A DNA stretch of 32,000 bases from Acaryochloris marina MBIC11017 (lineage in GTDB: Bacteria > Cyanobacteriota > Cyanobacteriia > Thermosynechococcales > Thermosynechococcaceae), in assembly GCF_000018105.1 (NCBI RefSeq), contig NC_009925.1:780001-812000 (forward strand), read 5' to 3'. The notes under the pieces were generated by a model. That model did not search any database, was not told the DNA's origin, and saw only the letters and a program-made list of their open reading frames with translations. The number at the start of each line of letters is the position of its first letter. Positions within the stretch are counted from its first letter, which is position 1. A program made the translations under genes and the position numbers. Positions 1-20,094 of this stretch are shown in pieces.

Positions 1-803
1 GGCTGAAAGTTCATAAACTCAATTTTAACAATGGATTTCGCACCCTTGAATCCATATTTCCACGGCGTAACCATGCGGATCGGTGCCCCATGCTGTTTCG
101 GCAAGAGATGGCCATAAATCCCCACCGCAAAAAACGCTAAGTCATGGGCCATTTCATCAATTCGCAAGCTTTCTGTGTAGGGCCAGGGCAAACCGCTGGA
201 ATCCGTAAACCCGCCGGGGCCAGGGGTGACCTGGGGATCGTAGTAAGAGGTAAAGCGCACAAACTTGGCATTGGATTTGGGTTCGACGTCTTGCAGTAGC
301 GATCGCATCGGGAATCCCAACCACGGCACCACCATGGCCCAAGCTTCTACACATCTAAATCGGTAGATCCGTTCCTCTAGGGGGAATTTCTGGGTTAAAT
401 CATCCAAATCATAGGTCTGAGGCCGATTTACCAGCCCCGTCACCTCCAACTTCCAAGGATCCGTCGGCAGCGCTTGAGCCGCTTGCCAAATATCTTTTGT
501 CCCGCCAAATTCATAGAAATTGTTATAGCGACTCGTTTTCGCCTCTGGCGTCACCGTCAATCCCTGTCCAGAATAGATGGGAGACCGTTTGACATTAGGA
601 AGCTGGCCTTGAGGTAACGTTGCCTGGAGGTCCGGCTCAATCTCGCTATCTGACCGAGAACAACTAATGCTGGGAAAGACGGTTGCACCAATGCCAAAGC
701 CAATCATATTTTTTAGAAATCGTCGCCGATGCCAATAAGCCGTTTCTGAAGTGATCGGCTGCGATTCGATCTGCCAAGGCTTAGGAATGCGAATAAGAAC
801 CAT
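1..803 (-). CDS. msrP: Protein-methionine-sulfoxide reductase catalytic subunit MsrP (YedY-type molybdopterin oxidoreductase); N-terminal part only, gene runs off the left edge
   Basis: Absent from the supplied ORF track because it is open at the window edge. My minus-strand translation from the ATG (complement of 801-803) reads MVLIRIPKPWQIESQPITSETAYWHRRRFLKNMIGFGIGATVF (twin-arginine RRRFLK signal). It continues ...SRYNNFYEFGGTKDIW...DPWKLEVTGLVNRPQTYDLDDL...PLEERIYRFRCVEAWAMVVPWLGFP...HGAPIRMVTPWKYGFKGAKSIVKIEF. These blocks match the conserved YedY/MsrP core as I remember it from E. coli MsrP. Confidence 0.85.
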   Translation of the reverse strand, partial: MVLIRIPKPWQIESQPITSETAYWHRRRFLKNMIGFGIGATVFPSISCSRSDSEIEPDLQATLPQGQLPNVKRSPIYSGQGLTVTPEAKTSRYNNFYEFGGTKDIWQAAQALPTDPWKLEVTGLVNRPQTYDLDDLTQKFPLEERIYRFRCVEAWAMVVPWLGFPMRSLLQDVEPKSNAKFVRFTSYYDPQVTPGPGGFTDSSGLPWPYTESLRIDEMAHDLAFFAVGIYGHLLPKQHGAPIRMVTPWKYGFKGAKSIVKIEFMNFQ

Positions 804-1060
804 GAAGTGAACCTGATAGCGGGATATCTGTATCTTTCCCGTTCGCTGCAGTACTTCAACTACCAACGGGCATCAACCCCGGACCTCTAGCTTAGCGAAG
901 TCAGAGAGCCTGGCGAATCTCCACCATAATCGCTATGCTCTTGCCAGCACGAATCAGGCAGTTTTTAATTGAAAAGATGCCCTGAGCATTCGTTTCATCC
1001 AATGGTTCCGAAGATCATCCATAGTCTTCAAGTGTCCAGCCACTCTAGTCTTTGAGCAAC

Positions 1061-1987
1061 ATGACTGATTCAACCCCCGAACCTCAAATCGTCAATATCA
1101 GAGATCGACAGCAGCAGCTCATTCGCCAGCGCAAACAAAAATTTCGGCGCGGTGCTTGGCGGACATTGATCATCTTAGGCATGACGGTAGGATTGGGATG
1201 GGCAGTCTGCCAACCCGAATGGCAAATTCAACAATCGAATCAAGTCACCCTAACGGGGAATGAAGCCATCGACAGCCAGACCCTGGAACACCTGATGGTG
1301 CTACAGTTTCCGACTTCTCTGATTCGCTTTCAGCCTCAAACCTTGATTGCTCAGTTGAAAAACAACGCCCATGTTAACCATGTGATTGTGACGCGGAAGC
1401 TGTTTCCTCCTAGGGTAAATGTGGTCGTGCGAGAATTACCCCCGGTGGCCATGACGGAATGTAAAGGATGCACCCTCGTCCTAAAGCCCGGTCAAGCTGA
1501 TTCCACCACCTTGGGGCCGGCCAATGTTTGGTTATTAGATCAGCGGGGCGTCGTTCTACCCGCTGATAGTTATCCCAAACTGGAAAAAGCCCATCAACTT
1601 CCCAAACTCACCTTAAAAGGCTATTTACAACCTGAAGCCAATGAGGACACTTCAGACAATCCCCCTGTCGATTCAGCGACGCAACTTGTTTCAATTGACC
1701 GTCAAAAACAACAACAATGGCAGCAGATGTATGCCTCAATGGAGACGAGTCCCGTTCAGATTAAACATCTCAATTGGGAAAACCCGAATAAACTGATGCT
1801 GACCACCAAATTGGGCCAGATTCATATTGGTCCATTTAGTGACAATTTTGATCGGCAACTTCAAGCCTTAGATGAAATGCGAACATTGCCTAAATCTGTC
1901 GATCCGAAGCAGATTGTTTATATTGACATCCAAAATCCTGAAAGTCCCGTTCTAGAATTGCGGAAACCATCCCCACCTAGTTCTTAA
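1061..1987 (+). CDS. ftsQ: Cell division protein FtsQ (cyanobacterial divisome, POTRA-type)
   Basis: Track ORF 1052..1987, with a TTG at 1052 and the first ATG at 1061. It has a basic N-terminus (RQRKQKFRRGAWR) followed by one TM helix (TLIILGMTVGLGWAV) and a periplasmic domain. It sits directly upstream of ftsZ in the conserved ftsQ-ftsZ arrangement. The start codon is uncertain. Confidence 0.8.
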   Translation: MTDSTPEPQIVNIRDRQQQLIRQRKQKFRRGAWRTLIILGMTVGLGWAVCQPEWQIQQSNQVTLTGNEAIDSQTLEHLMVLQFPTSLIRFQPQTLIAQLKNNAHVNHVIVTRKLFPPRVNVVVRELPPVAMTECKGCTLVLKPGQADSTTLGPANVWLLDQRGVVLPADSYPKLEKAHQLPKLTLKGYLQPEANEDTSDNPPVDSATQLVSIDRQKQQQWQQMYASMETSPVQIKHLNWENPNKLMLTTKLGQIHIGPFSDNFDRQLQALDEMRTLPKSVDPKQIVYIDIQNPESPVLELRKPSPPSS

Positions 1988-6007: not shown

Positions 6008-6646
6008 ATGCTGCAAACTCAGGTATCCGTGTCGCCAGCTCCAACCGATTGGCGTCAAGTCTTTGAAGAAGCTTATCAGGGACGACATACATATGACTTC
6101 AAAAGTGGAAGCACTATACCCATGGGACCGCAGGACCTATGGATTGTTTGTCGAGGAATTGTGCAATTAGGGACCTTGTTCGCATCTGGTGATGAAGCTG
6201 TTTTAGGTTTTGTCTACCCAGCAATGCCCTTTGGTTTGCCCTTAACACAGCTGAATCCCTACGAAGCGTTCGCCCTGACTGATGTTGTTCTAATGCGTCT
6301 CAATCAGGTGGAGCTAGAAAGTTCCCCATTATTAGCCCAGGGTGTTCTCCAGCAATTGAGTCGGCGATTGCAGCAAACCGAGGCCATCTTAGCGATGATC
6401 AGCCAACGACGGGTATACGATCGCTTAGTGCAGCTGTTATTGATGCTGAAACAGGAAGTAGGACATGTAACGCCGGATGGTGTGCGTTTAGAGGTGCGCT
6501 TGACCCATCAACAGCTCGCTAACCTGCTAGGCACAACACGAGTGACGATTACCCGATTGTTAGGACTGTTGCGTCAAGAGGGATGGCTAACCATTGATCG
6601 AACTCGGCACTTTGTCATTGCTGATGCCCCCTCTGAAAGCCTGTAG
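6008..6646 (+). CDS. Crp/Fnr-family transcriptional regulator
   Basis: An N-terminal cNMP-binding-like beta-roll region is followed by the C-terminal HTH LTHQQLANLLGTTRVTITRLLGLLRQEGWL. The size (212 aa) is typical. The last roughly 85 nt belong to the left copy of the island-flanking repeat. Confidence 0.85.
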   Translation: MLQTQVSVSPAPTDWRQVFEEAYQGRHTYDFKSGSTIPMGPQDLWIVCRGIVQLGTLFASGDEAVLGFVYPAMPFGLPLTQLNPYEAFALTDVVLMRLNQVELESSPLLAQGVLQQLSRRLQQTEAILAMISQRRVYDRLVQLLLMLKQEVGHVTPDGVRLEVRLTHQQLANLLGTTRVTITRLLGLLRQEGWLTIDRTRHFVIADAPSESL

Positions 6647-6961: not shown

Positions 6962-9900
6962 ATGAGAACTCATCAATACGTTCATAAGAAACGAGCCGCC
7001 CAGTCTTCCTATAACCCTGTTCCTCGATCTTCTAAAGTTCAGTCTTCAGTGCAGCCTCCGGCAATTCAAGCCAAGTCGAATGAAGAGGGTTTAGCTGAAC
7101 ATGCTGAGCGGTTGAGAAAGTTCCAGCGGCTGGGTACTTCAATGATACAAATGGGTCCACCCAGACTCGGGAATGATGAGTCCAGTCCATTACACCCAAA
7201 ACCCTGGCTTCAACGGAAATTGACGCTTGGGCAGCCAGGAGATAAGTATGAACGAGAGGCAGATCGGATTGCATCTCAAGTAGTGCAAACCATAAATCCC
7301 CCTGCTTCAAAAGAAAACATTATTAGGCAGTCGATTCAGCGCGAGAACGACTTAGAAGGGGTAATGTCCGCGAAAGGCTTTCAAGCTGCTATCCAGCGAA
7401 AGCAAGCAATAGCAGGTGGAGAAGCATCATCGGATTTAGAGTCTGCTATCAATAAAGCGAGAGGGAGTGGACAACCATTGAATGCAGGGTTGCAACAGTC
7501 AATGGGTCAGGCGATGCGTGCAGATTTTAGTGGGGTAAGAGTACATACAGATACTCAGTCAGACCAGTTAAATCAATCGATTCAGGCTCAGGCATTTACG
7601 ACGGGGCAAGATGTTTTTTTTCGACAAGGGGCATATCAGCCTGAAAATCAAGCAGGGCAGGAGTTGATTGCCCATGAGTTGACCCATGTCATTCAGCAGA
7701 ATTCTGGAGCGGTGAGAAGGCAACGTCAGTTTAGAAAAAATGATGAACTGCTGCATGGTCAATTTGAGGCAAACGTTAAACCAATGCAGCTTCAACCCAA
7801 TGGTCAATCTACTGATCTCCAAAAGGTTACGCCTGAGCAGAGGAAAGGTCGCCTGGAAGACTTAAACAACATCGATCTGTCAGATGTACAAGTCCTACAG
7901 CAAAGGCAAGGGCGAATAAACCCCATAATGCAGACCCATTACCCTGCGGCAGAGGGAGAGGCCAAATTTATAGAGGCAAAAACAGACCTTATTCAAGGAT
8001 TTACCCCTTCTGATCGGCCCTTCTTAAAAACTAGCCCTGATATGGTGCAGATGGACCGTAAAGAAAAAGTCGATCTTCTCAACCTGACAGTCGGAGAATT
8101 CGAAACCCATCGGAAGGCTGAGCAGATGGACTGGGCCAACGTGAAGAAATTTACAAAAAAAGAACGCAACACCATCTGGCAAATTATCGACTGGCGGCTG
8201 AACGGCTTAGACCCATTCATACTCAAGGATGTCGTTGACAAAGGTAAAAATAGTATAAAAAACCTCCGTAATATGAAGGCCTATTGTGACGGACTCAATG
8301 GCGAACTTAATGGGCAGAAAACCGTTCGACTGGCACCACAGACTACATTGGAAAAAGCCATCTACTACGGACACTGGCTTCAAAAAATTCATGGTCTCCT
8401 TGGGAAACGAACCGAGCTTGTTGTACCGACGAATGTATTCACTCAGTTAGTTGACACTGATTCTGGCAAAGTTGCTGAGGCTTTCATCAAGTACTTCAAT
8501 GAGATGAATCCCAACCTACAAACCCCTTCGGGCAAAGAAATTACATCTTTCATCAAACTTATGCATGAAGAAAAAGCCAAGATCGGGGATTACAAGAACG
8601 TTCTAAAAGACATTCGAAACTTTCATAAGTTTCCCAAGGAATCGCTTGATAAGCTAAAGGCTGATCTGTCCGTAAAGGACAAACCACTAACTCTTATTTT
8701 GCATTCTCTTTACGATCATAATGGCGCTTTTATTCGCCATGAGCATGTTAACAAGGTCATCAAAAACGACAAAATTAAGGTTTATCTCATTGAGGGTCAT
8801 GCTATAGAGAAGGTAAAATCTCTCATCCGTGGTGGATTCCAAGAACTAGCGAAGAAGTATGGCCTTGACGGCAAAATCACTCAGGTTATGGCCGTTGGTC
8901 ACGGTGAATCTACCGAGATTGAATTCGCTGGTGGCGGTACAGAAGTTACTGAAGACGGGGGCAAGACGTCGATCGATCAGAAAGATGTAGTTCCGATAGA
9001 ATTAGAAGGAACAAACGCGCGTGTCTTTGCCCTGTTCTTTGAACAAATTTTCGCCAACATGGAAGAGAAGAAGGGGCTGAAGCCCAAGGTGTTGTTGCGT
9101 GCTTGCCTAAGTGCATCGAATGAGGTTGACGAGAATAAGCTTAAGGAGTTGATGAAAAAAGAGAACATCCTTGATCTTGATGCGGTGGTTGATACAAAAA
9201 CTGCCGAAAATCAGGAAAAGATTCGAGAAGGCATTAGGAAGTACATTGAGAAGCATGGAAGTCTTGCCACAAAATTGGGCGACCAAGCCAAAGGGAGAGC
9301 GGAGGTTCTTGGAGCCCAGTCCTCAATTACATCAGTTGATACAGGTGCAATCAAAGAAGATACTGGCGAGTTGGATTTTATTACACTAGCTGATCCTCAT
9401 GTTGCTGGCCCAAAACTCACTTATGTTCGTCATGGTAAAGAGCCTTCTGGTGCCCTTAGAGCAGTTATTGAGAGCTGGGCAAACGATCCAGTTACTTGCT
9501 TCGCAGAAATGCAGGACCGCATTGATACGGTTCTAGTTAACAGTCATGCAGAGTTCATTATTAACCTTCTCTACCATACATTACTAACCCAGTATAAGAG
9601 TGACATCCTTACAGCAAACAAGTTCACTAAAACAGCCCATGTGCTTATGGGTGTCTTAGAAGGTAAAGATGGCTGCCGCTCTGCCAGACTGGCTGCGGAT
9701 GATATGAGTAAAAAGCACCGTGACGCTTTTTATCCGTTGCTTATTACACATATTACACAGTTTGGGAATGATGCTAGGCCAAAACTTGTGATCTACCAGG
9801 ACTGGATGCTTCATAATGACACTAAGCGCAATAACTTTATGGCGATGCTGGGGATACCCGGCTGTACAAGAACCATAGCCGACAAATACCTTGATTTCGC

Positions 9901-10429
9901 ACTCATCAAGGACTCAGTTGAAACTCTCGTAAAAATGACGGCAGCTCCCATGAAGGCTCGGGTTTTGCTGGCACTATGTGGCTTGATTCGTCAGAACCCA
10001 ATCGAGTCTTGTAAAACCTTTCTTTTGACTCAAGTTAAAGGGGACAACTCCTTAAAGAAAAGCATTACTGATGAGTTAGATGGTTATTCAGTATCTAAGC
10101 TTCGTGACAAACTCGACTTAGAGGAAGAAATCGCGCAACCTGACTCAACCGCTGCCCATCCCAAAAATGTTGGTGGTGAAGGCGAATTTCACGTTAAGCC
10201 GATTAAAACAAAAGTTGAAAAAATAAAAAAAAGCACCCGTAAAAACCAGGCTAAATCACGCATTGAGCCTCGTCAGGATGCCAAAGTCGCGTTAACGCTA
10301 ACCCAAAAGAAGAACTACCATATTGTTGGTGAAGTCGTGAACACTGATGACACTAAAACGGGGTGGTATATGCTCAGGTTGAGTGCCGGGAAAATTGCCT
10401 ATATCGAGCAGAAGTATTTTAGCAATTAG
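6962..10429 (+). CDS. Large multidomain polymorphic-toxin-like protein: DUF4157 (HExxH 'PVC-metallopeptidase') prefix, ~900-aa unknown region containing a His/Cys clan-CD-like module, and an SH3b-like C-terminus
   Basis: 1155-aa ORF. DUF4157 hallmarks span about aa 85-246: LQRKLTLGQPGDKYEREADRIASQVV, then GQPLNAGLQQSMGQAMRADFSGVRVHTDTQSDQLNQSIQAQAFTTGQDVFFRQGAYQPENQAGQELIAHELTHVIQQ. The HELTH codons are at nt 7673-7687. No signal peptide is present. The C-terminus KNYHIVGEVVNTDDTKTGWYMLRLSAGKIAYIEQKYF resembles a bacterial SH3 domain. Confidence 0.85.
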   Translation: MRTHQYVHKKRAAQSSYNPVPRSSKVQSSVQPPAIQAKSNEEGLAEHAERLRKFQRLGTSMIQMGPPRLGNDESSPLHPKPWLQRKLTLGQPGDKYEREADRIASQVVQTINPPASKENIIRQSIQRENDLEGVMSAKGFQAAIQRKQAIAGGEASSDLESAINKARGSGQPLNAGLQQSMGQAMRADFSGVRVHTDTQSDQLNQSIQAQAFTTGQDVFFRQGAYQPENQAGQELIAHELTHVIQQNSGAVRRQRQFRKNDELLHGQFEANVKPMQLQPNGQSTDLQKVTPEQRKGRLEDLNNIDLSDVQVLQQRQGRINPIMQTHYPAAEGEAKFIEAKTDLIQGFTPSDRPFLKTSPDMVQMDRKEKVDLLNLTVGEFETHRKAEQMDWANVKKFTKKERNTIWQIIDWRLNGLDPFILKDVVDKGKNSIKNLRNMKAYCDGLNGELNGQKTVRLAPQTTLEKAIYYGHWLQKIHGLLGKRTELVVPTNVFTQLVDTDSGKVAEAFIKYFNEMNPNLQTPSGKEITSFIKLMHEEKAKIGDYKNVLKDIRNFHKFPKESLDKLKADLSVKDKPLTLILHSLYDHNGAFIRHEHVNKVIKNDKIKVYLIEGHAIEKVKSLIRGGFQELAKKYGLDGKITQVMAVGHGESTEIEFAGGGTEVTEDGGKTSIDQKDVVPIELEGTNARVFALFFEQIFANMEEKKGLKPKVLLRACLSASNEVDENKLKELMKKENILDLDAVVDTKTAENQEKIREGIRKYIEKHGSLATKLGDQAKGRAEVLGAQSSITSVDTGAIKEDTGELDFITLADPHVAGPKLTYVRHGKEPSGALRAVIESWANDPVTCFAEMQDRIDTVLVNSHAEFIINLLYHTLLTQYKSDILTANKFTKTAHVLMGVLEGKDGCRSARLAADDMSKKHRDAFYPLLITHITQFGNDARPKLVIYQDWMLHNDTKRNNFMAMLGIPGCTRTIADKYLDFALIKDSVETLVKMTAAPMKARVLLALCGLIRQNPIESCKTFLLTQVKGDNSLKKSITDELDGYSVSKLRDKLDLEEEIAQPDSTAAHPKNVGGEGEFHVKPIKTKVEKIKKSTRKNQAKSRIEPRQDAKVALTLTQKKNYHIVGEVVNTDDTKTGWYMLRLSAGKIAYIEQKYFSN

Positions 10430-10554: not shown

Positions 10555-11454
10555 ATGGAAATTACACTCGACCAGAAAACGACATGGCACCTAGGTGGAG
10601 AGGCTCATGTACTTCATCTCTTAAGGTTAGTTGCCCAAATCAATGATGAAAATTGGTCTGCTGTCAGCGTTGTGCTTGAATGTGCCCCTGTTATCGCTGC
10701 GAGAGGTGAAGAACTGAGCTGGTTTCACAACCGCCTGGAGAGTCGCCTTGATTGGCAAAATCGGCCATTTCTGGAAGATCTGCCTGTTCGGATGGAGATT
10801 GCATTGAGGCCCGAGTACTATCCTCGCTTGCCTTGTCCAAGTTCTGATGCAGTGCAACGTCTCACTGACCTATTTGTAATTGAGCCACCCCCTTCTCCTG
10901 AACTATTCGATGATGCGGTCTGGAATGCGATACAGCTCTGGCAAGAGTACCCTATCGATCCATCGATTGGTGGTGGTACGATGCGGGTTGGCTATCGAAC
11001 AGCGTTTTCTATGTTCACTGACGAGGTTGATCGACTTCGTCGCCGGGGCCCAGTCTCTCGTATTATCGTCGATGCGTTGATTGAGTCTGGTATTCCGATC
11101 TCTTGGATTGAGGAGGATCCGGTTTTTACTGTTACGCTCTATGCTGAAGACCGTGGCTATCTCTGTCGAATTCGTCCCAACGAGTCTTCTTCTGGGATAA
11201 CTGTCAGTGTGGAATGGATAGAGCAGCTCTCTGATGCTGGGGTCGCAAAACTTTCATCACATATTGCTGTAGCTGATACTGACCTCGTTTTCGGTTCCTT
11301 GACTCTAGTCGATGGGCGAATTCGCCTTGATAACCTAACCCTATTAGGGCCGTCTATTACGGAGGAAACGATTATCGAAACTTTGCGTGCTGCAGTATCA
11401 GCTCTCAATAGCAAGGTCAATGAGTGGTCAGAGTTAGATCTCACGGCGGGTTAA
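10555..11454 (+). CDS. Hypothetical protein; candidate immunity protein or chaperone for the upstream toxin-like protein (C-terminal half resembles the YbjN / type III secretion chaperone-like fold)
   Basis: 299-aa ORF, co-directional and 125 nt downstream of the 1155-aa gene. The C-terminal half (RIIVDALIESGIPISWIEEDPVFTVTLYAEDRGYLCRIRPNESSSGITVSVEWIEQL...SLTLVDGRIRLDNLTLL) has the alternating pattern I associate with YbjN/CesT-like proteins. This is a pattern impression only. Confidence 0.65.
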   Translation: MEITLDQKTTWHLGGEAHVLHLLRLVAQINDENWSAVSVVLECAPVIAARGEELSWFHNRLESRLDWQNRPFLEDLPVRMEIALRPEYYPRLPCPSSDAVQRLTDLFVIEPPPSPELFDDAVWNAIQLWQEYPIDPSIGGGTMRVGYRTAFSMFTDEVDRLRRRGPVSRIIVDALIESGIPISWIEEDPVFTVTLYAEDRGYLCRIRPNESSSGITVSVEWIEQLSDAGVAKLSSHIAVADTDLVFGSLTLVDGRIRLDNLTLLGPSITEETIIETLRAAVSALNSKVNEWSELDLTAG

Positions 11455-11600: not shown

Positions 11601-13297
11601 GGGCTTGCTTCGGAAGTCTAAGTTCCAATATTTGCAGTGTATCCAAGTGTTGAGGGCCCTTGAGAAGTGCAAGGAAAATCATTCAAAATATTTAAAACCC
11701 TTGCACCTGCAACCCGATGTATCGCCGTCCATCCCCCGGTCAACTGTCCTTTGAGAACTTCTACTTGCCCTTTGGAGGGAAACTTTCAGGAGAGAATCGC
11801 TGGGTCAAACTAGCCGAGTTGATTCCTTGGGAGAGCTTTGAGTCAGAATATGCAGACCAATTCAGTCAGACCATGGGGGCACCTGCCAAACCCTTTCGTG
11901 TGGCCTTAGGGACCTTAATCATCAAAGAGAAACTGGGTATATCCGACGCAGAGACCGTAGAACAGATTCGAGAGAACCCCTACTTGCAGTACTTTCTGGG
12001 GTTTAGTGAATATCGAGAGAGTGCTCCGTTTGATGCCTCCATGCTGGTTCACTTTCGCCAACGGTTGAATCTAGAGCTGCTAGCTCAAGTCAATGACGCA
12101 GTCGTGGACTCTGTGCTGGCATCCGAGGGGTCTCCTGTGGCGATGTCCCCTGAGTCATCTCCTCCCTCTGACGATGATGAAGATGAGCCTCCTGCCCCTC
12201 CCAACCAGGGCCAATTGTTGATAGATGCGACCTGTGCACCAGCCGATATTCGCTATCCGACAGACTTGGATTTGCTCAATGATGCCCGCAAAGCAAGCGA
12301 AGCCATCCTCGATGCTTTATATGCTCAAGTCATGCTGTCCCTCAAGTGCAAACCTCGCACCTACCGCCAGAAGGCCCGCAAAGCCTATCTGGCCATTGCC
12401 AAAAAACGTCAACCGAGCCGCAAGCTGATTCGTAAAGGGATTCGTCAGCAGTTGGGCTATGTGCGTCGCAATCTAGCCCATATTGATGGGTTGATAACAT
12501 TGGGGGCTTCCCTATCCCAATTGTCCCGGCGGCAGTACCGTCTGTTGCTGGTGATTCATGAAGTCTTTCGACAGCAAGAATGGATGTATCAACAGTCAGT
12601 ACGTCGAGTGGACGACCGGATTGTCAGTATGAGTCAGCCTCATGTCCGACCGATGGTCCGAGGCAAAGCTGGAACACCCGTTGAGTTTGGAGCCAAGCTA
12701 TCCCTCAGTTGTGTGCGTGGATGTGTGTTTCTGGAGCGCTTGAGTTGGGATGCGTTCAATGAATCCCAGCATCTTCAACATCAAGTGGAAGCCTTTCGTC
12801 GTCGCTTTGGCCATTATCCTTTCTCAGTCCATGCTGACCAAATCTATCGGACTCGGGCTAATCGACGATGGTGTAAAGCTCGGGGGATTCGCTTGAGTGG
12901 ACCGCCGTTAGGAAGACCTCAACAAGACCCACAAGTACAGACCCAACTCAAGCAACAAGCGTGTGAGGATGAAAAGGTGAGGGTCCAGATTGAGGGTAAG
13001 TTTGGGCAGGCCAAGCGACGGTTTGGCTTGAATCGAGTGATGGCGAAGTTAGCGGATACGGCTGCCAGTGCGATTGCTATCACGTTCTTGGTCATGAATC
13101 TGGAGCGGTGGCTCAGCCACTTTTTATCGTTCATTTTTGGGGTGGGATTGCTGGTTTTGGAAAGCGTTATGGAGCTGTCAGGACTTCCTTGGGGCTTTGC
13201 TAGGGCCAGTCAAAGGATATGGCTCTGGCCGTCACAAATGGGTTGCTTGTACGATTTGATGCATGGAATTTGCTCAATTTACTTTCTCAGCAAACCC
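11601..13297 (+). mobile_element. IS5/IS1182-like insertion sequence (~1.7 kb)
   Basis: Terminal inverted repeats are IRL 11601-11617 gggcttgcttcggaagt and the reverse complement of IRR 13281-13297, gggtttgctgagaaagt (13/17 matches). TATTTA directly abuts both ends (11595-11600 and 13298-13303) as a perfect direct repeat, consistent with a 6-bp target-site duplication. One DDE transposase ORF fills the element. Confidence 0.75.
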
Positions 13298-13336
13298 TAT
13301 TTAGCAGTACTTTTCAGACTTCGAATTTACAAGTAA
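11717..13336 (+). CDS. DDE transposase, IS5/IS1182-like (N-terminal DUF772-type domain plus DDE_Tnp_1-type catalytic domain)
   Basis: N-terminus SFENFYLPFGGKLSGENRWVKLAELIPWESFE. Candidate DDE residues lie in LLIDATCAPADIRYPTD, VHADQIYRT and VQIEGKFGQAKRRFGLNRVMAKL. The reading frame crosses the IRR, and its stop (13334-13336) lies about 39 nt outside the inferred element end. Confidence 0.9.
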   Translation: MYRRPSPGQLSFENFYLPFGGKLSGENRWVKLAELIPWESFESEYADQFSQTMGAPAKPFRVALGTLIIKEKLGISDAETVEQIRENPYLQYFLGFSEYRESAPFDASMLVHFRQRLNLELLAQVNDAVVDSVLASEGSPVAMSPESSPPSDDDEDEPPAPPNQGQLLIDATCAPADIRYPTDLDLLNDARKASEAILDALYAQVMLSLKCKPRTYRQKARKAYLAIAKKRQPSRKLIRKGIRQQLGYVRRNLAHIDGLITLGASLSQLSRRQYRLLLVIHEVFRQQEWMYQQSVRRVDDRIVSMSQPHVRPMVRGKAGTPVEFGAKLSLSCVRGCVFLERLSWDAFNESQHLQHQVEAFRRRFGHYPFSVHADQIYRTRANRRWCKARGIRLSGPPLGRPQQDPQVQTQLKQQACEDEKVRVQIEGKFGQAKRRFGLNRVMAKLADTAASAIAITFLVMNLERWLSHFLSFIFGVGLLVLESVMELSGLPWGFARASQRIWLWPSQMGCLYDLMHGICSIYFLSKPYLAVLFRLRIYK

Positions 13337-13713: not shown

Positions 13714-14934
13714 TTAACTCTTAACTGTTTTGCATTGCAATGCGACCAGTAAATCAGAGCCCATTTTTTCTGCAATACTACGCCCTGGGCACTCACGCCG
13801 CTTCGCTTCACCTACTGAGTTAAAGCTGAGTGCTGCCAATAGGTTGTCTCGATGAGGATTGAAGTCTAAGGGGTTCTCAAAGACCGTACTGTCTAGATTA
13901 GCCAACCCGATGTTTGCGGAGAACAGCGTACCCTTGGGAAACTTACGTTTTCGGCCATTGATGGTCACCTCTGTTTCTGTCTGGGCAATGGTATTGATGT
14001 TATTCACTGGCGAGTGTCGACGAGCTGTTTCTAAAACTACTCGCAACACTTCATGACGATTATCTACATCGATCTCCAGATCGCGTGGAACCTTGGCTAT
14101 TAAGGACCGGAGTAAACTCTCACTACCTAGACATCCTGCAATTGCGATCGCTTCCAGTAGCAAAGTACTCAGTTCTGTTCGACTTAAATCATTTTCAGTG
14201 GTTGGAACATACCTACTCATAACAGGAGAGTTCTCAATCAGGTTAAGGGCGATCCCTTCTAATCGTTTAACTTCCTGCAACTTATTAGCAGATGGGGCTA
14301 AAGGTTTCACCCTTGAGATCAGCAATGATTCCTTTGGTTTTGAGGAGAAGAATAGCGTTTTTAGAGATGATAGTTGCTGTGGAGAAAGTTTGACTTCTAA
14401 TAGCACTAACATGATGTATTGGATGACAGTGCGTTGAATGTCATCGCTAATGTCATCTAAAGCCGGAGGATTTCCATGTTGATTAGCAATGGTGGCTAAC
14501 TGATTCAACAGATCTTTAGCTTCTTGGGACTCAGTATTATCAAAGGCTGGTTTAAAAACGACCTCTAAAACGGCTGATCTTGCTTTTTTATGAGTAGTAT
14601 CACCCTTTACTTCTTTATCAGACAGAAAAAGCAAAAAATTCTTAGAGAATCGATCAGGAATGCAGCGAAAACGGCCAATATAAGGTTCTCTTTGTTGGGG
14701 CTCTGCAATGATTTTTGCAGCAAGATTATATTCACCCACAATAATTCTGCCTAAAGCCGCAAAGTTCTGGCCAAAAAGCTGTTGTCTTTTACCTAAAAAT
14801 TCTTGAGGAGTAACAATACTATAACTAATAACATCCACTACATAGAAAAACCTCATAAGCATTGTAGTTAGGATGTTAGGGTGCCGCAATAGACAAATTT
14901 GGATACGGTTTGAGAAACGAATTAATAAACTCAT
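13714..14934 (-). CDS. Divergent cytochrome P450-like haem-thiolate protein (candidate fatty-acid hydroperoxide-converting enzyme)
   Basis: ExxR motif in VVLETARRHSPV and a PERF-like FNPHRD. The Cys-ligand loop is SFNSVGEAKRRECPGRSIA, which is FxxG...CxG with 4 extra residues compared with the canonical FGGSNRRCLG of the P450 at 24662..26026. The I-helix position reads IAGCLGSES and lacks the acid-alcohol (E/D-T) pair. The gene is AT-rich and lies 230 nt downstream of, and co-directional with, the lipoxygenase gene. The start codon is uncertain (M1, M24 or M26). Confidence 0.6.
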   Translation of the reverse strand: MSLLIRFSNRIQICLLRHPNILTTMLMRFFYVVDVISYSIVTPQEFLGKRQQLFGQNFAALGRIIVGEYNLAAKIIAEPQQREPYIGRFRCIPDRFSKNFLLFLSDKEVKGDTTHKKARSAVLEVVFKPAFDNTESQEAKDLLNQLATIANQHGNPPALDDISDDIQRTVIQYIMLVLLEVKLSPQQLSSLKTLFFSSKPKESLLISRVKPLAPSANKLQEVKRLEGIALNLIENSPVMSRYVPTTENDLSRTELSTLLLEAIAIAGCLGSESLLRSLIAKVPRDLEIDVDNRHEVLRVVLETARRHSPVNNINTIAQTETEVTINGRKRKFPKGTLFSANIGLANLDSTVFENPLDFNPHRDNLLAALSFNSVGEAKRRECPGRSIAEKMGSDLLVALQCKTVKS

Positions 14935-15164
14935 AGCTGCCCCATTAATTTATCAACAGAATTGCAAAACATGGTAGTCCTAGAGAAGTAATGACAGGAG
15001 AGGAACATCCTTTATGGCTAGAACTTCTAGGATTCAAACTCTTGAAAAGAGCTTAGCGAAAGGAACAAATTCTGGATAAGCCATTTTGGGAAATGGCCTG
15101 ATTGGTCGGCGTTACCCTTTTTTGGCCAGATCTGAACAAAGCCCTTGATTGGAGAAAGTCAAAC

Positions 15165-17183
15165 TCAGATGTTAATACTCTGAGGGATTTTATTAGGATG
15201 TAGGAAATCATAAAAGGTTGGGCGAACACTGTTCCGTTCATCAATGATGATGCCAATGGCATCTAACTGTTGCTGAAATGCTTTGAGTAGAGGTTGCACC
15301 CTAGTATCCGTAAAGTGCTCTTCTCCATATTCCCCTAATAGGGTGTAGTAAAGAGAACCCAACAAATAGGTCATATCCATCTGGGTCTCTGCCTGTTTCA
15401 GGGAAGGAAGAAGGTTGAAATAGTCTTGAGTGGTTGCCTTTGTTGACTTTGGCGCGGGTCGATATCCCGCTAAAGGCAAGTTGGGGATATAGGTCATATA
15501 AGTCGATTGGGAGAAGTTCACGGCTGCATGTTGGGCACTCCCTGTAAAAATAATGAGCGTCACCATATCTGCCAAGTAAGCTTTAGTGCGCAAGCTAGGT
15601 TGCTCCTGATCCGATGCGGTTTCCCCAATTTCTGTCATGCGCCCTCCGTCTTGAGCGACCATTTCTGCTAACCAAGCTTGGAGTTCGGTGTCCTCTACCA
15701 CATCCTGATCGCTGAGGTAATACAAGTCTAGATAGCTCTCAACCCAATCGTGAATCGCATTCCAAACGAGTAGTGCATCATCTCGATAGGGATAGTCAGG
15801 AAGCTGATCCACATTATCGACCCCCCGTCTGGAGAGTGTGGCGGGTAGCATCGAATCATTAAAACCGTAGGGGAACCCTTGTACGGCTTTAACGCTGAGC
15901 TCTTTAGAAGATTCAATAGTGCCAGACATCACTGAATCCACGGTACCTCCATCATTAACAAGGCCAGAAATGGCTGCATTATTAATAAACAATGTTCCTT
16001 CAAAATGAGGACGCAATAAGGCGCTGAGGGGATGATTAGGGGCCAGTTGACGATAGGTAGCCACTACAATGGGCTCGATCAATAAGTGGGTCCGACCGAG
16101 ATGAGAAATGAGCTCATGGTAATTGCCATCAGCGATTTGAACGATGGTTTTTGCCATCAGCCAAGCCCATTGCTCGGACTGGGGGCTACCCTCAGGGGGT
16201 GGAGTGAAAATAGGATTATCAGAGCCTGGCTGCTGCTGGCACTGAATGGCTACGGCTGTGAGGGAGCCGCTTCCTTCCGCAGGTACTGCAAACAGGGCGA
16301 GGGGAGCATAGACATATTTTTGAGCATCCGGAAAAGTGCCCGGTTCTAATAGGTTCAACACTGCATAATCAGTGATATAAAGTCGCCCCTCTGCTCCAGC
16401 CTTTTGGAGAGAATCAGCAGTTCCCATCACGGCCTGATATTGATCGTTAGTGACAGGGAAGTGGTCTGGTAATCTCTTGCATTGTTCTAGAACTAAAGGG
16501 TTCGCTCCCGCAACTCGCTGGGCGACAAAGGCTCGATCTGTCCAGAACTGTTGGCTAATACAAGGCAAATAAATAATCTGAAACAGATCGTTATAGGCTT
16601 GAAAGAGTTGGCTGTAGTCTGACAAACTGTCTTGGGCTTGCTTAGCCTGCATAGCTAAAGCTTGATGGTCGAGCTTCTGCTGCTCTTGAGCATGGTCTCG
16701 GGGATCTTTGACCTCAGAGATTAATGTTTCCAGTAACGGCTGGTGGATATCGTTCACTTTGGCCGAGGGGGTTTGGGAACTGTTTTGCTCAATGGAGGGT
16801 GGTTTGCCATCTTGCAAGCGTTGAACCAACCGAATAATTGGCAGAACTTTGGCTAACAAAAACTTCAAAAAGCCAGCACGTTTAGGGTTATTCAAGAAAC
16901 GGGTGACACGGGTAAGCCAGGCAAATCGGCGGAGTTTTCGGACAGAACCTGTTTCATTAACGTCTTGTAAAGCTTGGTTAGCATCTATTCTCAGCAGCAG
17001 AGATAAGGCATCTTGAAGCCAAGGAAATTTGCCAAGGGATTGATCTTGTGGGGGCACTTTCTCGGCCATTGCCCCGCCATTAGGGAGGTAAGTGTAGTTA
17101 TAGCGATAGTCTCGACGAGCAGCCACTAAAGCCGTTTGCCGTTGAACAGGATTGGAATCATTTTGAGGTAGAGAGATATTCAT
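15165..17183 (-). CDS. Lipoxygenase (bacterial type, no PLAT domain)
   Basis: Iron-ligand motifs WLMAKTIVQIADGNYHELISHLGRTHLLIEP (HxxxxH) and GSAQHAAVNFSQSTY (H...N). The C-terminus IPQSINI ends in the Ile that supplies the carboxylate ligand. The track ORF begins at a TTG at 17204; the first ATG is at 17183 (MNISLPQ). Confidence 0.95.
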   Translation of the reverse strand: MNISLPQNDSNPVQRQTALVAARRDYRYNYTYLPNGGAMAEKVPPQDQSLGKFPWLQDALSLLLRIDANQALQDVNETGSVRKLRRFAWLTRVTRFLNNPKRAGFLKFLLAKVLPIIRLVQRLQDGKPPSIEQNSSQTPSAKVNDIHQPLLETLISEVKDPRDHAQEQQKLDHQALAMQAKQAQDSLSDYSQLFQAYNDLFQIIYLPCISQQFWTDRAFVAQRVAGANPLVLEQCKRLPDHFPVTNDQYQAVMGTADSLQKAGAEGRLYITDYAVLNLLEPGTFPDAQKYVYAPLALFAVPAEGSGSLTAVAIQCQQQPGSDNPIFTPPPEGSPQSEQWAWLMAKTIVQIADGNYHELISHLGRTHLLIEPIVVATYRQLAPNHPLSALLRPHFEGTLFINNAAISGLVNDGGTVDSVMSGTIESSKELSVKAVQGFPYGFNDSMLPATLSRRGVDNVDQLPDYPYRDDALLVWNAIHDWVESYLDLYYLSDQDVVEDTELQAWLAEMVAQDGGRMTEIGETASDQEQPSLRTKAYLADMVTLIIFTGSAQHAAVNFSQSTYMTYIPNLPLAGYRPAPKSTKATTQDYFNLLPSLKQAETQMDMTYLLGSLYYTLLGEYGEEHFTDTRVQPLLKAFQQQLDAIGIIIDERNSVRPTFYDFLHPNKIPQSINI

Positions 17184-17610
17184 AAGACCAAATGTGACTA
17201 ACAACAGCGTGAGGGGAAAAGGTTTAGGGGAAAACGATGAAAGCTACTTCAAAAAGGTAGAAACTAAAAAAAAATGGCGAAAAGTAATTAATTTCTTCTG
17301 ATTTTGTCCATTACTGGGGTGTATCCAGTTTTTATAGGAGATGCATGGGCAGTAGGAGAGTGAATTCAGGTAATTGTGATTCTCTACAGCAGGAATGTAA
17401 ATAGGTAGATAAGGGGACCGTCTACCACAGAACTAAGCGTACTTTTACTGCACTAAAAATGGCGTGATCTATATCAAAGTTTCCCTGAATAATTTTCTAA
17501 TTTATTGACTTTATAATTCTGGAGGTAACTGACCAAGAAAATTATTAGGAGTGGTTATATAAGTTGATTAAAGTTGCAATATTAATTTCTACATTTTTCC
17601 TTTCCTGTTA

Positions 17611-17865
17611 TTAAGCAGCCTGGAATATTTCTGCGATTTCACTAACACCGCTGATGAATTTTTTTCTTTTTTCAGATAGAGACACGAATTCTGCGATATG
17701 ACTGCGAGATCTCAAAACGTGACTCACCTCATCTACGGCTTTGCAGAAAAGGCACTTCCGGGGGTTAGTACTCCACTGGATATTGTCTGGTGGAGTACTA
17801 ACCCGTACTCTTGCCTCTTGACTACTGATAGACACTGACAAAGAGGGTTGCACCGGGTTGATCAT
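17611..17865 (-). CDS. Hypothetical small protein (84 aa), questionable
   Basis: Its only ATG start overlaps the 3' end of the lysozyme/LDT gene by 44 nt in another frame. The one notable feature is a CxxC pair (CLFCK). No recognisable family. Confidence 0.3.
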   Translation of the reverse strand: MINPVQPSLSVSISSQEARVRVSTPPDNIQWSTNPRKCLFCKAVDEVSHVLRSRSHIAEFVSLSEKRKKFISGVSEIAEIFQAA

Positions 17866-19327: not shown

Positions 19328-19695
19328 TACCAGCCCTCCTGTAAAACGGCGGTTAATTCTTTCTCAGGGGTTTGGACCTTGATCACTTTGGATGTAGTTG
19401 AGACCATCTCGGTGGAAGGCACCGTTACAGTTGGAGATGCTGCTACTGTTGTTGGAACCGCTGAATTCAATACAGGCTTCTCGTCACGCTCGGAGAATTT
19501 TTGCAAGCCCTTCATACCTGCACCGCCAATGGTTAAGGCCCCGGTGAGGATGTAAAGGTTTTCGGAAAAGGTCTTCCCTCGCCATTCACCAGCGGCCAAA
19601 GTAATGGCGAGACCCAATCCCACTAATACTGATGCAGTGGTCTGCAGTCTGCCTGAGGATCGCTTACCTTTAGCATCTTGTAATATCCCGGTCAT
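19327..19695 (-). CDS. Small two-TM membrane protein, holin-like candidate
   Basis: The likely start is the ATG at the complement of 19693-19695 (MTGILQDAKGKRSSGR), preceded by AAGGAG 7 nt upstream. The track's longer ORF (to 19776) has no such RBS. TM1 is TTASVLVGLGLAITLAAG, TM2 is LYILTGALTIGGAGM, and the tail is hydrophilic. Its stop overlaps the start of the lysozyme/LDT gene (TAATG), which implies translational coupling. Confidence 0.6.
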   Translation of the reverse strand: MTGILQDAKGKRSSGRLQTTASVLVGLGLAITLAAGEWRGKTFSENLYILTGALTIGGAGMKGLQKFSERDEKPVLNSAVPTTVAASPTVTVPSTEMVSTTSKVIKVQTPEKELTAVLQEGW

Positions 19696-20094
19696 ACATA
19701 ATCTCCTTGAATAGCGATAGATGGTGTTGTGTTTTGCTGCAATCCTCTGATTTGTGCAGATATCCCTAAGACTCAAGACACGTATCGTTAGCCGATCTGG
19801 TGAAAGCTATTCGATACTTCAAATCAGTCTTCAAATTCTTGTGGCATTAGTCTATTTCCAAGAGAAATAGTGAATTAGCCCTAAGGATTGATTTGAGCTG
19901 ATTTCTATCTGAATTAGAGCACCCGTTTTAGGGGTATTCAGTGATATATGATGATTTTCAAGGTGATTGTGAGCACATTTTGTGTGTTCACTGTGGTTGA
20001 GACTGTAACCGTCTGGAGCAGACCTATTAACTAAAATTGCTCTGATGTACGGCTGCACACTGAAAAATGGTACAGCCGATAGTTGATGCAAGGC

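Follow-up and report, generated by a model that had tools for sequence, protein, structure and literature searches.

The locus analyzed here lies in a 32-kb window of the Acaryochloris marina genome (the window being the whole stretch of DNA that was studied) and comprises a large ORF, a smaller gene downstream on the same strand and, just beyond, an IS transposase gene (Table 1). The large ORF starts with ATG and its product is identical to A. marina WP_012161437.1/ABW25856.1 (AM1_0812), annotated at NCBI under the name 'eCIS core domain-containing protein'.

Table 1. Features of the AM1_0812/AM1_0813 cassette and its 3' border (window positions; residue numbers are those of AM1_0812 unless stated otherwise)
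Feature	Position	Strand	Basis and remarks
AM1_0812 ORF, 1155 aa	6962..10429	+	ATG start
N-terminal region, aa 1-171	6962..7474	+	Polar, includes EREADRIA; proposed loading region
eCIS_core/DUF4157 ('PVC-metallopeptidase') domain, aa 172-249	7475..7708	+	PF13699; HELTH at nt 7673-7687
Predicted disordered linker, aa 250-363	7709..8050	+	AlphaFold pLDDT <50
Helical domain 1, ~aa 364-568	8051..8665	+	AlphaFold helices 110-309 (model numbering), pLDDT mostly >90
Caspase-like alpha/beta domain, ~aa 569-812	8666..9397	+	AlphaFold topology, Foldseek, conservation
Key residues of the caspase-like domain	D585 (nt 8714), E611 (nt 8792), G-H647-G (nt 8900), A-C715-L (nt 9104)		
Helical domain 2, ~aa 813-1050	9398..10111	+	AlphaFold helices 559-791 (model numbering)
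C-terminal SH3b-like domain, ~aa 1076-1149	10187..10408	+	Foldseek; SH3_3 in relatives
Partner gene AM1_0813, 299 aa	10555..11454	+	Beta-rich N-terminal half; predicted T3SS chaperone/YbjN-fold C-terminal half
IS transposase (DUF772 + DDE_Tnp_1_2)	11717..13336	+	Pfam; just 3' of the cassette, at the end of conserved synteny

The original prediction for this DNA had described the product as a leaderless 1155-aa protein carrying the signature of DUF4157, and our analysis agrees with it on the ORF, on the missing leader and on the domain. Pfam PF13699 (eCIS_core, formerly DUF4157) matched residues 172-249 (E=2e-31, 108.4 bits, cut-off 22) in an alignment spanning model positions 1-78 of 79, and all four motifs quoted as the signature were found: EREADRIA (residues 97-104), DFSGVRVHTD (188-197), AFTTGQDVFF (211-220), and HELTH (238-242), the latter being an intact HExxH motif of the zinc-binding type. 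Hydropathy analysis revealed no signal peptide (maximum 19-residue Kyte-Doolittle value of -0.31 in the first 120 residues), and a hydrophobic segment was absent from the whole protein, over which the maximum was 1.18. Only 22% of the residues in the first 171 positions are hydrophobic, and this region is rich in S, Q, A, R, K and P, a composition that suggests disorder. In the AlgoCIS cargos Cgo1 and Cgo2 a disordered N-terminal domain is needed for loading (PMC8894135; bioRxiv 10.64898/2026.05.27.728243), and by analogy residues 1-171 of AM1_0812 may function as a loading region. The combination of DUF4157 with a polar, disordered, non-Sec N-terminus is the form described for eCIS-associated toxins (EATs) (Geller 2021; Danov 2024).

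The remaining ~900 residues of AM1_0812, outside DUF4157, gave no sequence match in Pfam, NCBIfam or the PDB, and the single PADLOC match of the protein was well short of significance (E=0.031). This part had been considered unassignable to any characterised toxin family, but the model and the conserved residues in it point to a caspase-like Cys-His domain. The AlphaFold model of the 896-aa C-terminal part (pLDDT 85, pTM 0.80) consists, in this order, of a disordered linker (pLDDT <50 through most of model residues 1-104, which correspond to residues 260-363 of AM1_0812), a helical domain, the caspase-like alpha/beta domain, a second helical domain and a C-terminal SH3b domain. Searches with Pfam and Foldseek returned no family or PDB match for helical domain 1 and no toxin family match for helical domain 2. 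At the C-terminus, Foldseek matched SH3b domains from NlpC2, lysostaphin and PlySb (probability 0.95-1.0), Pfam SH3_3 (PF08239) was found in 9 of 28 and 15 of 42 relatives, and there was a weak profile match to SH3-type PDB chains, although Pfam detected no SH3b domain at the C-terminus of AM1_0812 itself. The SH3b-like ending that had been proposed is supported, and the most likely role of this tail is to anchor AM1_0812 to peptidoglycan.

The predicted topology of the alpha/beta domain is b1-a-b2-a-b3(His)-insert-a-b4(Cys)-a-a-b5-b6. When the whole 896-aa model was used as the Foldseek query, the best matches for this domain were caspase-2, -1 and -8 (probability 0.38-0.66, E 0.43-0.84, target-normalised TM 0.33-0.46). 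In the model, QVMAVGH647G comes after strand 379-386 and VLLRAC715L after strand 450-454 (model numbering), and the clan CD order is kept: His and then Cys, each ending a hydrophobic beta strand ('His-Gly ... Ala-Cys'). Asp585 comes after strand 1. Among ~168 relatives, these positions are nearly invariant (H647 in 167 of 168, C715 in 164 of 168, D585 in 163 of 165, and E611 in all 167 compared). Pfam matched no curated clan CD family (C14, C80, C25, C13, CHAT and others) in AM1_0812 or in the sets of 28 and 42 relatives, and a profile of the domain run against the PDB matched nothing relevant. The predicted likeness to caspases is one of fold and motif only. At this level, H647 and C715 are the candidate catalytic dyad of a putative cysteine protease of the clan CD type, in which Asp585 might favour substrates with a basic residue at P1.

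With 159 clusters out of 1.84 billion, the payload family is rare. The helical and alpha/beta domains almost always occur together, with most genome matches spanning query residues ~110-890. Thirty-six of 42 long relatives carry eCIS_core and none carries any other trafficking domain. In 7 of 51 other species the payload-family locus adjoins contractile injection system (CIS) genes, whereas at ~40 of the 51 loci the 10 kb around the payload gene contain no CIS gene. The gene order in Solimicrobium is CIS tape measure, AAA ATPase, 1119-aa protein, effector and YbjN-type partner; in Aquimarina, Nitrospira and Taibaiella the tape measure and AAA genes are followed by an effector array that includes a payload-family member; a Leptolyngbyaceae cyanobacterium encodes a member near a tube and a VgrG-like spike, and two actinomycete loci do so near sheath, tubes and spike. 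In genomes other than that of A. marina the family is found at the 3' ends of CIS operons, and in Solimicrobium this is where the whole effector-plus-partner cassette lies. Because the payload family lies inside the CIS operons of other genomes, its link to CIS is direct and goes beyond the name of the prefix domain. Decay was also seen among the relatives, with one locus broken into six ORFs (L053), another split across frames (L012), and a third in which the partner gene is split and displaced by IS elements (L003).

Homologues of AM1_0813 were found directly 3' of the effector in Aureispira (E=9e-40) and in L004, L008, L009 (two copies), L010, L011 and L012. In L004 the effector has no DUF4157 and the partner is kept. 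From this distribution, the partner is conserved across phyla and travels with the payload and not with the DUF4157 prefix. Pfam YbjN (PF10722) matched 8 of 13 partner-family members (best E=3.6e-12), one member matched TY-Chap1, and AM1_0813 itself stayed below threshold against PF10722 (E=0.058). Its structure model (pLDDT 74, from a 6-sequence alignment) gave SicP, ExsC, SchA, SycH, CesT and YbjN as top Foldseek matches (probability up to 1.0), with a probability of 1.0 and a target-normalised TM of 0.68 for SicP and YbjN structure 6vu7 also among the matches. The C-terminal half of AM1_0813 is thus predicted to adopt the type III secretion chaperone/YbjN fold, and no known immunity family was recognised in the protein. 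The original prediction of a classic toxin-immunity layout was right in that the downstream 299-aa gene is a conserved partner; given its chaperone fold and its place outside the known immunity families, the layout itself is unproven. In 24 loci of distant relatives a non-homologous WD40 protein takes the place of the YbjN-fold partner. The partners of Aureispira and Saprospiraceae carry lipoprotein signals, and in diderms a signal or transmembrane segment is present in several of the WD40 partners, which together with the SH3b domain points to a target in the envelope. AM1_0813 has no export signal, and such a target is therefore not indicated in Acaryochloris.

To follow the evolution of the cassette, we compared the window with the L058 allele of a near-identical Acaryochloris strain, in which FtsZ, Prs and ABC are 100% identical. 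Identity between the alleles was 98% in residues 1-171, 95% in the linker and 95-98% over residues 1-363 as a whole, and fell to 75-85% in the payload. The dN/dS ratio was 0.22 in the N-terminal half, ~0.94 in the payload, 1.68 in the SH3b tail and 0.35 in the partner, compared with 0-0.12 in neighbouring housekeeping genes, and payload dS was similar to that of the flanking housekeeping genes. The most divergent patch was in helical domain 2 (codons 901-960, dN 0.33). A payload dN/dS near 1 indicates fast payload evolution, although it could alternatively reflect relaxed constraint. A conserved N-terminal trafficking part followed by a diversifying C-terminal part is a mark of polymorphic toxin systems (Zhang et al. 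2012); together with the DUF4157 prefix, the absent signal peptide and the SH3b tail, this sustains the earlier reading of AM1_0812 as polymorphic-toxin-like.

The earlier picture of a bracketed island was not upheld. No flanking repeats were found around the AM1_0812 region, a single IS transposase lies downstream, and in a second Acaryochloris strain the cassette occupies an identical FtsQ-FtsZ-Prs-DUF3531-ABC-Crp context. The homologous contig of a related strain ends at window position ~11600, and the transposase is probably not a functional part of the cassette. A functional tie to a holin-like/muramidase pair, also put forward earlier, is not supported: the lysozyme-YkuD gene (17822-19327, - strand) lies 7.4 kb from the cassette on the opposite strand, with the transposase and the unrelated P450 and lipoxygenase genes between. 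An ORF upstream of the lysozyme-YkuD gene encodes one transmembrane segment.

Among the window ORFs scanned (most of those of at least 100 aa), none belonged to sheath, tube, baseplate, T6SS or T7SS families, and the statement that injection machinery is missing thus holds for the window only. A further mark of EATs, a location no more than about ten genes away from an eCIS operon, applies to relatives in 7 of 51 loci and not to AM1_0812 in its 32-kb window. The Acaryochloris cassette is an orphan, far from any injection machinery genes. Elsewhere in the A. marina genome, published annotations give AM1_0271 as a tail sheath gene and AM1_6406 as a gp25 gene, which on the strength of these annotations are possible machinery for AM1_0812. 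One eCIS survey scored Acaryochloris at 0 of 2 genomes, and the genes published as co-regulated with the sheath gene include neither AM1_0812 nor AM1_0813.

Taken together, we consider it probable, with some reservation, that AM1_0812 is a CIS/eCIS cargo with a caspase-like payload, an SH3b tail and a chaperone-fold partner, orphaned in Acaryochloris. The polar N-terminal region and the DUF4157 metallopeptidase-like module would form the conserved 'trafficking' half, joined by a disordered linker of ~110 residues to a payload of 790 residues, whose core would be a caspase-like (clan CD type) cysteine protease with His647 and Cys715, set between two helical domains. AM1_0813 would bind the payload and keep it inactive or loading-competent in the producer, its role being that of an immunity protein or of a dedicated chaperone. 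As an orphan, the cassette would depend on loading in trans, onto a particle whose genes lie at another place in the genome, and the protease, once delivered, would cleave envelope proteins of the target cell.

The caspase-like domain could instead have a role within the toxin itself. In MARTX and large clostridial toxins the CPD serves autoprocessing, and so do internal caspase-like domains of polymorphic toxins. The AM1_0812 domain might likewise act from within as a 'releasing' peptidase that cuts its own chain after delivery, the part set free, helical domain 2 with the SH3b tail, then being the true toxin. Most polymorphic-toxin caspase-like domains are internal releasing peptidases just upstream of the toxin domain (Zhang et al. 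2012; PMC3482391), and the AM1_0812 domain conforms to this general rule in being internal, with ~340 residues after it, and in preceding the two regions in which the alleles diverge most, helical domain 2 and the SH3b tail. However, the helical and alpha/beta domains are nearly always one unit (matches ~110-890), the pTM of 0.80 suggests a single compact enzyme, helical domain 2 resembles no toxin family, and DUF4157 has already been proposed as the processing peptidase of this class (PMC3482391); we regard a releasing role as unlikely.

Two further explanations dispense with delivery by an injection system. If the cassette were a decaying relic whose injection system has been lost, neutral drift would account for the dN/dS of the payload (0.94) and the SH3b tail (1.68) against 0-0.12 in neighbouring housekeeping genes, and the 0 of 2 survey score of the genus and the decay in L053, L012 and the L003 partner would fit as well. 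This is very unlikely considering that at least three diverged Acaryochloris-type alleles (P0001, P0002 and P0003) keep the 1155-codon frame unbroken, that the alignment with P0002 and P0003 shows no change at the candidate catalytic residues, that purifying selection acts on the N-terminal half (0.22) and the partner (0.35), and that the A. marina genome has annotated sheath and gp25 genes. The pair might also act without any injection system, either as an intracellular toxin-antitoxin or programmed-cell-death module, in which a chaperone-fold antitoxin would restrain a caspase-like executioner, or as a lysis-released, bacteriocin-like protein whose SH3b domain binds the walls of neighbouring cells, the latter corresponding to the lysis idea of the original prediction. 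Such action would agree with the ~40 of 51 family loci that have no CIS gene within 10 kb, with the cytoplasmic Acaryochloris partner, with the lysozyme-YkuD gene and its upstream single-transmembrane ORF in the window, and with the CIS-linked cell death reported in cyanobacteria and Streptomyces. Against it, the payload is fused solely to the eCIS_core prefix and lies inside CIS operons in seven genomes, the muramidase gene is remote, on the other strand and separated by unrelated genes, no defence family was matched significantly (PADLOC best E=0.03), and the periplasmic lipoprotein partners of Bacteroidota fit protection from an incoming toxin better than an antitoxin. Action of this kind is accordingly judged highly improbable.

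Within the injection-system cargo reading, AM1_0813 could be an effector-specific chaperone or adaptor that recruits the orphan effector, encoded hundreds of genes away, in trans to a non-canonical CIS of a unicellular cyanobacterium, for which the far-red-induced AM1_0271 sheath cluster is a candidate. We hold this more specific proposal to be unlikely, and the evidence would equally fit a simple immunity role or a cassette that has lost its machine; if true, no effector-specific chaperone would have been described before it for an eCIS-type machine, and its client would be a new clan-CD protease acting on the target envelope. Predicted cargo of contractile injection systems comes mainly from proteins with a DUF4157 prefix: the domain occurs in about half of 2,194 predicted toxins, most of them without an annotated payload. 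For one such 'dark' payload there is now a testable identity, namely a caspase-like Cys-His domain with an SH3b tail and two alternative cognate partners. AM1_0812 and AM1_0813 are a candidate new protease effector and its inhibiting or chaperoning partner, which is relevant to engineering injection systems as delivery tools, and the Acaryochloris copy illustrates that cassettes persist and evolve fast far from machinery genes, which bears on in-trans effector recruitment.

As a member of a known cargo class that lies far from machinery, AM1_0812 does not represent a new kind of system. By description, it resembles Cgo1 and Cgo2 of Algoriphagus machipongonensis in having a disordered N-terminus, a central DUF4157, a disordered linker, a large folded C-terminal domain and no signal peptide, Cgo2 having 1228 aa. 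Unlike the orphan AM1_0812, these cargos are encoded within the CIS cluster and fill the tube lumen, in which they have been seen (PMC8894135; bioRxiv 10.64898/2026.05.27.728243); neither Algoriphagus nor Cgo2 was among the matches of the payload homologue searches. 'Tox-Caspase' is a cargo reported behind the PVC-metallopeptidase prefix, with a conserved H and C and with cyanobacteria among its phyla (Zhang et al. 2012; PMC3482391). Compared by description, it shares with the AM1_0812 family the caspase-like fold, the conserved H and C and the DUF4157-led PVC-type architecture, whereas the AM1_0812 domain has no Pfam model, lies between two helical domains in a protein with an SH3b end, and is accompanied by a YbjN-fold protein or a WD40 propeller instead of the listed Imm36. 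With clan CD peptidases (caspases, metacaspases, gingipains and the C80 CPD of MARTX/TcdB) AM1_0812 shares a predicted alpha/beta fold in which strand 3 precedes the His and strand 4 the Cys, but it has no sequence-profile match to them and carries a four-strand beta insert between His and Cys. AM1_0813, finally, is like class I T3SS chaperones of chaperone-effector pairs (SicP-SptP, PDB 1jyo) and YbjN proteins in the predicted a-b-b-b-a-b-b-a fold of its C-terminal half, and like the chaperones in being a small protein encoded beside a large client. It differs from them in its length of ~300 aa, its extra beta-rich N-terminal half and the fact that no T3SS is involved; some of its orthologues are lipoproteins, a misfit with a cytoplasmic secretion chaperone, and, unlike T3SS chaperones, partners of this type accompany the payload and not the N-terminal region.

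The product of AM1_0812, the 1155-aa effector candidate, is identical to WP_012161437.1/ABW25856.1, and the FtsZ and PRPP synthase encoded in the window are likewise exact A. marina proteins. The gene is the longest ORF of the window, and no hydrophobic segment was found over the whole length of the protein by hydropathy analysis. Its sole significant Pfam match was PF13699, the eCIS core domain formerly named DUF4157 (E=2e-31). The 4 DUF4157 motifs named in the original prediction were all found and HExxH is intact; judged by sequence, this is a genuine eCIS_core prefix. Outside PF13699, no Pfam, NCBIfam, or PDB sequence match was obtained, PADLOC gave a single match far from significance, and nothing useful came from PDB searches with the whole protein or with a profile built from 20 sequences of the caspase-like domain described below. 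That a DUF4157 protein occurs here with no injection genes within 32 kb was borne out by the Pfam hit, the motifs, and the ORF scan, in which none of the scanned window ORFs (most of at least 100 aa) matched sheath, tube, baseplate, spike, T6SS, or T7SS families. AM1_0812 and its downstream partner gene AM1_0813 are together termed the cassette below. A promoter and terminator scan was no richer than shuffled sequence. Features are located in the table.

Location of features in the window (nucleotides), in AM1_0812 (aa), and at loci of relatives (L numbers, nucleotides of each locus)
Feature	Location	Strand	Remark
Crp-family regulator	6008-6646	+	directly upstream of effector gene
Effector, AM1_0812	6962-10429	+	1155 aa
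LQRSAGNxAV-like motif	aa 54-63		FQRLGTSMIQ, degenerate
eCIS_core (PF13699)	aa 172-249		Pfam
Disordered segment	aa 260-363		AlphaFold
Helical domain	aa ~364-568		AlphaFold
Alpha/beta domain, caspase-like	aa ~569-812		AlphaFold
Second helical domain	aa ~813-1050		AlphaFold
Small beta domain, SH3b	aa ~1076-1149		AlphaFold and Foldseek
Partner, AM1_0813	10555-11454	+	299 aa
IS transposase	11717-13336	+	DUF772 + DDE_Tnp_1 type, right after cassette
Lipoxygenase and adjoining protein	13714-17204	-	679 aa; 406 aa, only a C-terminal P450 match
Phage_lysozyme-YkuD fusion	17822-19327	-	YkuD (L,D-transpeptidase) match weak
149-aa ORF	19327-19776	-	overlaps and precedes fusion gene; one clear transmembrane segment, aa 44-62
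TetR-family regulator, fatty-acid desaturase, full-length P450	20434-22665, 24482-26026		near lipoxygenase
DUF4157 array, L029	8093-18186		Aquimarina algiphila
DUF4157 array, L039	4476-11884		Taibaiella soli
DUF4157 arrays, L049 and L054			
Large conserved protein, L008	5891-9250		Solimicrobium, 1119 aa
Large conserved protein, L034	4720-7113		Nitrospira, 797 aa
Partner paralog, L009	12416-13444		with lipoprotein signal
Partner paralog, L009	13594-14478		without lipoprotein signal
Broken family member, L053	9397-12603		Saprospirales MAG
Broken family member, L012	9533-12342		
Transposases, L003	13354-16185		metagenomic
Transposase, L004	12806 onward		metagenomic

The payload family is rare: a search of 5.8 billion clusters with aa 260-1155 recovered only 29 relatives, and an exhaustive HMMER search (1.84 billion) returned 159 representative clusters for the central domain. 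AlphaFold modeled this region confidently, with a pLDDT of 85 and a pTM of 0.80 from a 28-sequence alignment. The C-terminal domain was assigned to SH3b by Foldseek with a probability of 0.95-1.0 (NlpC2, lysostaphin, PlySb). The best matches of the alpha/beta domain were caspase-2, caspase-1, and procaspase-8, and they were weak (probability 0.38-0.66, target-normalized TM 0.33-0.46, E about 0.4-0.8); matches of the whole model to mGlu2, MTP, importins, and 14-3-3 (TM <0.2, RMSD >15 A) were dropped as helical noise. The support that the fold score lacks is supplied by strand order, motif arrangement, and conservation. Strands in the model follow the order b1-a-b2-a-b3-...-b4-a-a-b5-b6, with QVMAVG-H647-G directly after strand 3 and VLLRA-C715-L directly after strand 4. 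A His-Gly...Ala-Cys arrangement characterizes clan CD peptidases (caspase-hemoglobinase fold). Counted over about 168 relatives, His647 is conserved in 167/168, Cys715 in 164/168, Asp585 (DHNGAF loop after strand 1) in 163/165, and Glu611 in 167/167. From the strand arrangement and the near-invariant candidate catalytic residues, taken with the weak fold match, the payload is very probably a Cys-His enzyme on a caspase-like scaffold and is predicted to be active. A glutaminase/DJ-1-type Cys-His enzyme was considered and rejected on residue order, His coming before Cys, and on the position of the two residues after beta strands, which is the clan CD arrangement. No curated clan CD family was matched in a Pfam scan of 70 relatives or by the domain profile against the PDB, and on this comparison the payload appears to fall outside every such family.

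When a single genome was scanned for each species, 51 family loci were identified, spanning Cyanobacteria, Bacteroidota, Chloroflexota, Actinomycetota, Myxococcota, Nitrospirota, and Proteobacteria. Pfam detected eCIS_core in 36 of the 42 longest representatives, SH3_3 in 15, SH3_4 in 3, and any other trafficking domain, such as PAAR, Rhs, LXG, or WXG, in none. Unmistakable CIS genes lie within 10 kb of the family member at 7 of the 51 loci. In Solimicrobium silvestre, a CIS tape measure, an AAA ATPase, and the 1119-aa protein are followed by the effector and then by an AM1_0813-family partner; in Aquimarina algiphila, a Nitrospira MAG, and Taibaiella soli, the family member belongs to an array of DUF4157 genes that comes after tape measure and AAA genes. 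Leptolyngbyaceae UHCC 1019 encodes a gp19 tube, a CIS tube, a VgrG-like spike, and a DUF4157 protein ahead of the family member, and 2 actinomycete MAGs have sheath, tube, and spike genes near it. Most family loci, those of Aureispira and the window included, are orphans. No relative was found on viral contigs in the scan, and a phage-borne origin is therefore not indicated.

Several features recur at these loci. The DUF4157 arrays comprise 3-4 consecutive genes with differing C-termini after CIS tape-measure and AAA genes, and a WD40 partner follows the family member only. In 2 unrelated CIS operons, the gene of a large conserved protein without Pfam match separates the AAA ATPase gene from the effector genes. 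An N-terminal LQRSAGNxAV-type motif, presumably shared with other DUF4157 proteins, is carried by several actinobacterial members in which Pfam detects no DUF4157; in actinobacterial and Anaerolineae members of this kind (L024, L026, L043, L048, L050), it recurs before the payload, ~100-400 aa into the protein. The motif may serve loading or recognition and be common to DUF4157 proteins. Two family members are broken into several overlapping ORFs and are pseudogenes unless long-read assembly introduced frameshift errors.

AM1_0813 alone gave no significant Pfam or NCBIfam family match. Homologs lie directly 3' of the effector gene in Aureispira anguillae (29% identity, E=9e-40), on metagenomic contig L004 (35% identity), and in Solimicrobium, a Caldilineaceae MAG, an uncultured bacterium bin (L010), and a Solirubrobacteraceae MAG. 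A Saprospiraceae MAG (L009) has 2 tandem homologs after one effector, and at the metagenomic locus L003 IS elements have moved the partner away. The L004 effector lacks DUF4157, yet its partner is kept; hence the partner tracks the payload and not the prefix. YbjN was detected by Pfam in 8/13 partner-family members (best E=3.6e-12) and TY-Chap1 in 1/13, and the partner model (pLDDT 74, alignment of 6 sequences) best matched SicP, ExsC, SchA, SycH, CesT, and YbjN in Foldseek (probability up to 1.0). Searching a large protein set for the partner family yielded only 5 proteins with a single-sequence query and again 5 with a profile. A WD40 beta-propeller of ~330 aa takes the partner's place directly beside the effector, on either strand, at 24 loci that are more distant. 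Lipoprotein signals occur in the partner from Aureispira and in one from Saprospiraceae (…ITAC, …LLAC), and the WD40 partners of Nostoc, Leptolyngbyaceae, and Myxococcales have signal or transmembrane segments or a lipobox; no signal, transmembrane segment, or lipobox was found in AM1_0813. The 2 tandem paralogs of locus L009 differ in this respect, as if each copy guarded its own compartment, periplasm or cytoplasm. The alternation of two unrelated partner families at the same payload and the frequent export of partners in diderm bacteria favor immunity as the role and the envelope as the target; the SH3b domain, too, suggests the envelope. Given its chaperone fold and, in Acaryochloris, its cytoplasmic location, the partner may instead be a chaperone or adaptor. 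Immunity is rated slightly ahead of chaperone.

The gene order of a second Acaryochloris strain (L058) equals that of the window (FtsQ-FtsZ-Prs-DUF3531-ABC-Crp-effector-partner), and therefore the cassette is a stable chromosomal resident, not a fresh insertion; synteny stops at the IS transposase of the window. The bracketed island of the original prediction was not upheld, given this shared order and repeat matches that were only short and at chance level. Between the strains, FtsZ, Prs, and the ABC ATPase are 100% identical at the aa level (dN/dS 0), aa 1-363 of the effector are 95-98% identical (dN/dS 0.22), and the partner is 94.6% identical (dN/dS 0.35), whereas the payload (aa 364-1155) is 75-85% identical with a dN/dS of 0.94 (dN 0.119, dS 0.126) and the SH3b tail 81% with a dN/dS of 1.68. 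A constant trafficking half joined to an apparently diversifying payload is the polymorphic-toxin pattern. Relaxed constraint would be the alternative reading of the fast payload evolution, but the frame is intact in at least 3 diverged alleles, the candidate catalytic residues are invariant, and the N-terminal half is constrained. Divergence is patchy, with short blocks at 65-77% nucleotide identity, which suggests recombination between Acaryochloris alleles. The Crp-family regulator gene has a dS of 0.78 against 0.07-0.22 in its neighbors and contains a block of 77-88% nucleotide identity (6150-6600) that looks like a recombination patch abutting the effector promoter region. Transposases of the same Pfam type as that of the window stand beside or inside the cassette at the unrelated L003 and L004, at L003 between the effector and a split partner gene; they may reflect mobility or plain decay of the cassette.

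A functional tie of the predicted holin-like/muramidase pair (the 149-aa ORF and the lysozyme-YkuD gene) to the cassette was rejected on distance, opposite strand, and intervening genes, and no lysozyme-family gene was seen to recur in the family-locus neighborhoods. The lipoxygenase region possibly represents an oxylipin gene neighborhood unrelated to the cassette.

The absence of machinery claimed earlier holds for the window; genome-wide, the literature conflicts. The survey of Geller et al. reports 0 eCIS in 2 Acaryochloris genomes, whereas the gene list of the A. marina transcriptome paper contains a tail sheath gene (AM1_0271), a GPW/gp25 family protein (AM1_6406, K06903), and tail-collar genes (AM1_3688-3690), several of the genes listed being co-induced in far-red light. 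Low far-red light induces the sheath gene. AM1_0812 and AM1_0813 are absent from the differential-expression list of that paper. An A. marina protein is also the example given for the aldo-keto-reductase toxin domain, a type listed as PVC-delivered with a PVC-metallopeptidase prefix (Zhang et al., PMC3482391). A tblastn with a cyanobacterial CIS tube protein against plasmids showed no Acaryochloris record among the best 40 of 120 matches; the collection lacks NC_009926, and the result carries no weight.

Starting from the observed domain layout, residue conservation, partner linkage, CIS linkage elsewhere, and fast payload evolution, we propose that the N-terminal region would direct loading of AM1_0812 into a CIS tube, with the DUF4157 module assisting or processing. 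After injection or release, AM1_0812 would be held at peptidoglycan by its SH3b domain and would cleave envelope proteins with its Cys-His domain, where Asp585, judged from gingipains and metacaspases, perhaps confers a preference for basic P1 residues. The partner would block or escort the payload in the producer. The caspase-like domain may instead be a releasing autopeptidase, or the cassette a relic. A further alternative is that the pair needs no CIS and acts as a toxin-antitoxin or cell-death module, or else as a lysis-released bacteriocin.

In architecture, AM1_0812 matches the AlgoCIS cargos Cgo1 and Cgo2; these reside in the tube lumen, and their loading needs a disordered N-terminal domain, not DUF4157 (PMC8894135; bioRxiv 10.64898/2026.05.27.728243). 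By position, AM1_0812 does not count as an "eCIS-associated toxin" in A. marina; it is built like, and predicted to work like, eCIS cargo. Since the payloads of most DUF4157 proteins are known among specialists to be unannotated, the surprise is moderate. What is gained is a specific catalytic hypothesis and a cognate chaperone-fold partner for a dark payload, together with a natural orphan-versus-operon comparison between Acaryochloris and Solimicrobium. The payload resembles Tox-Caspase, a cargo found behind PVC-metallopeptidase prefixes (Zhang et al., PMC3482391), and belongs to a rare, unannotated family that has a helical shell of its own, ends in SH3b, and occurs with two types of partner.
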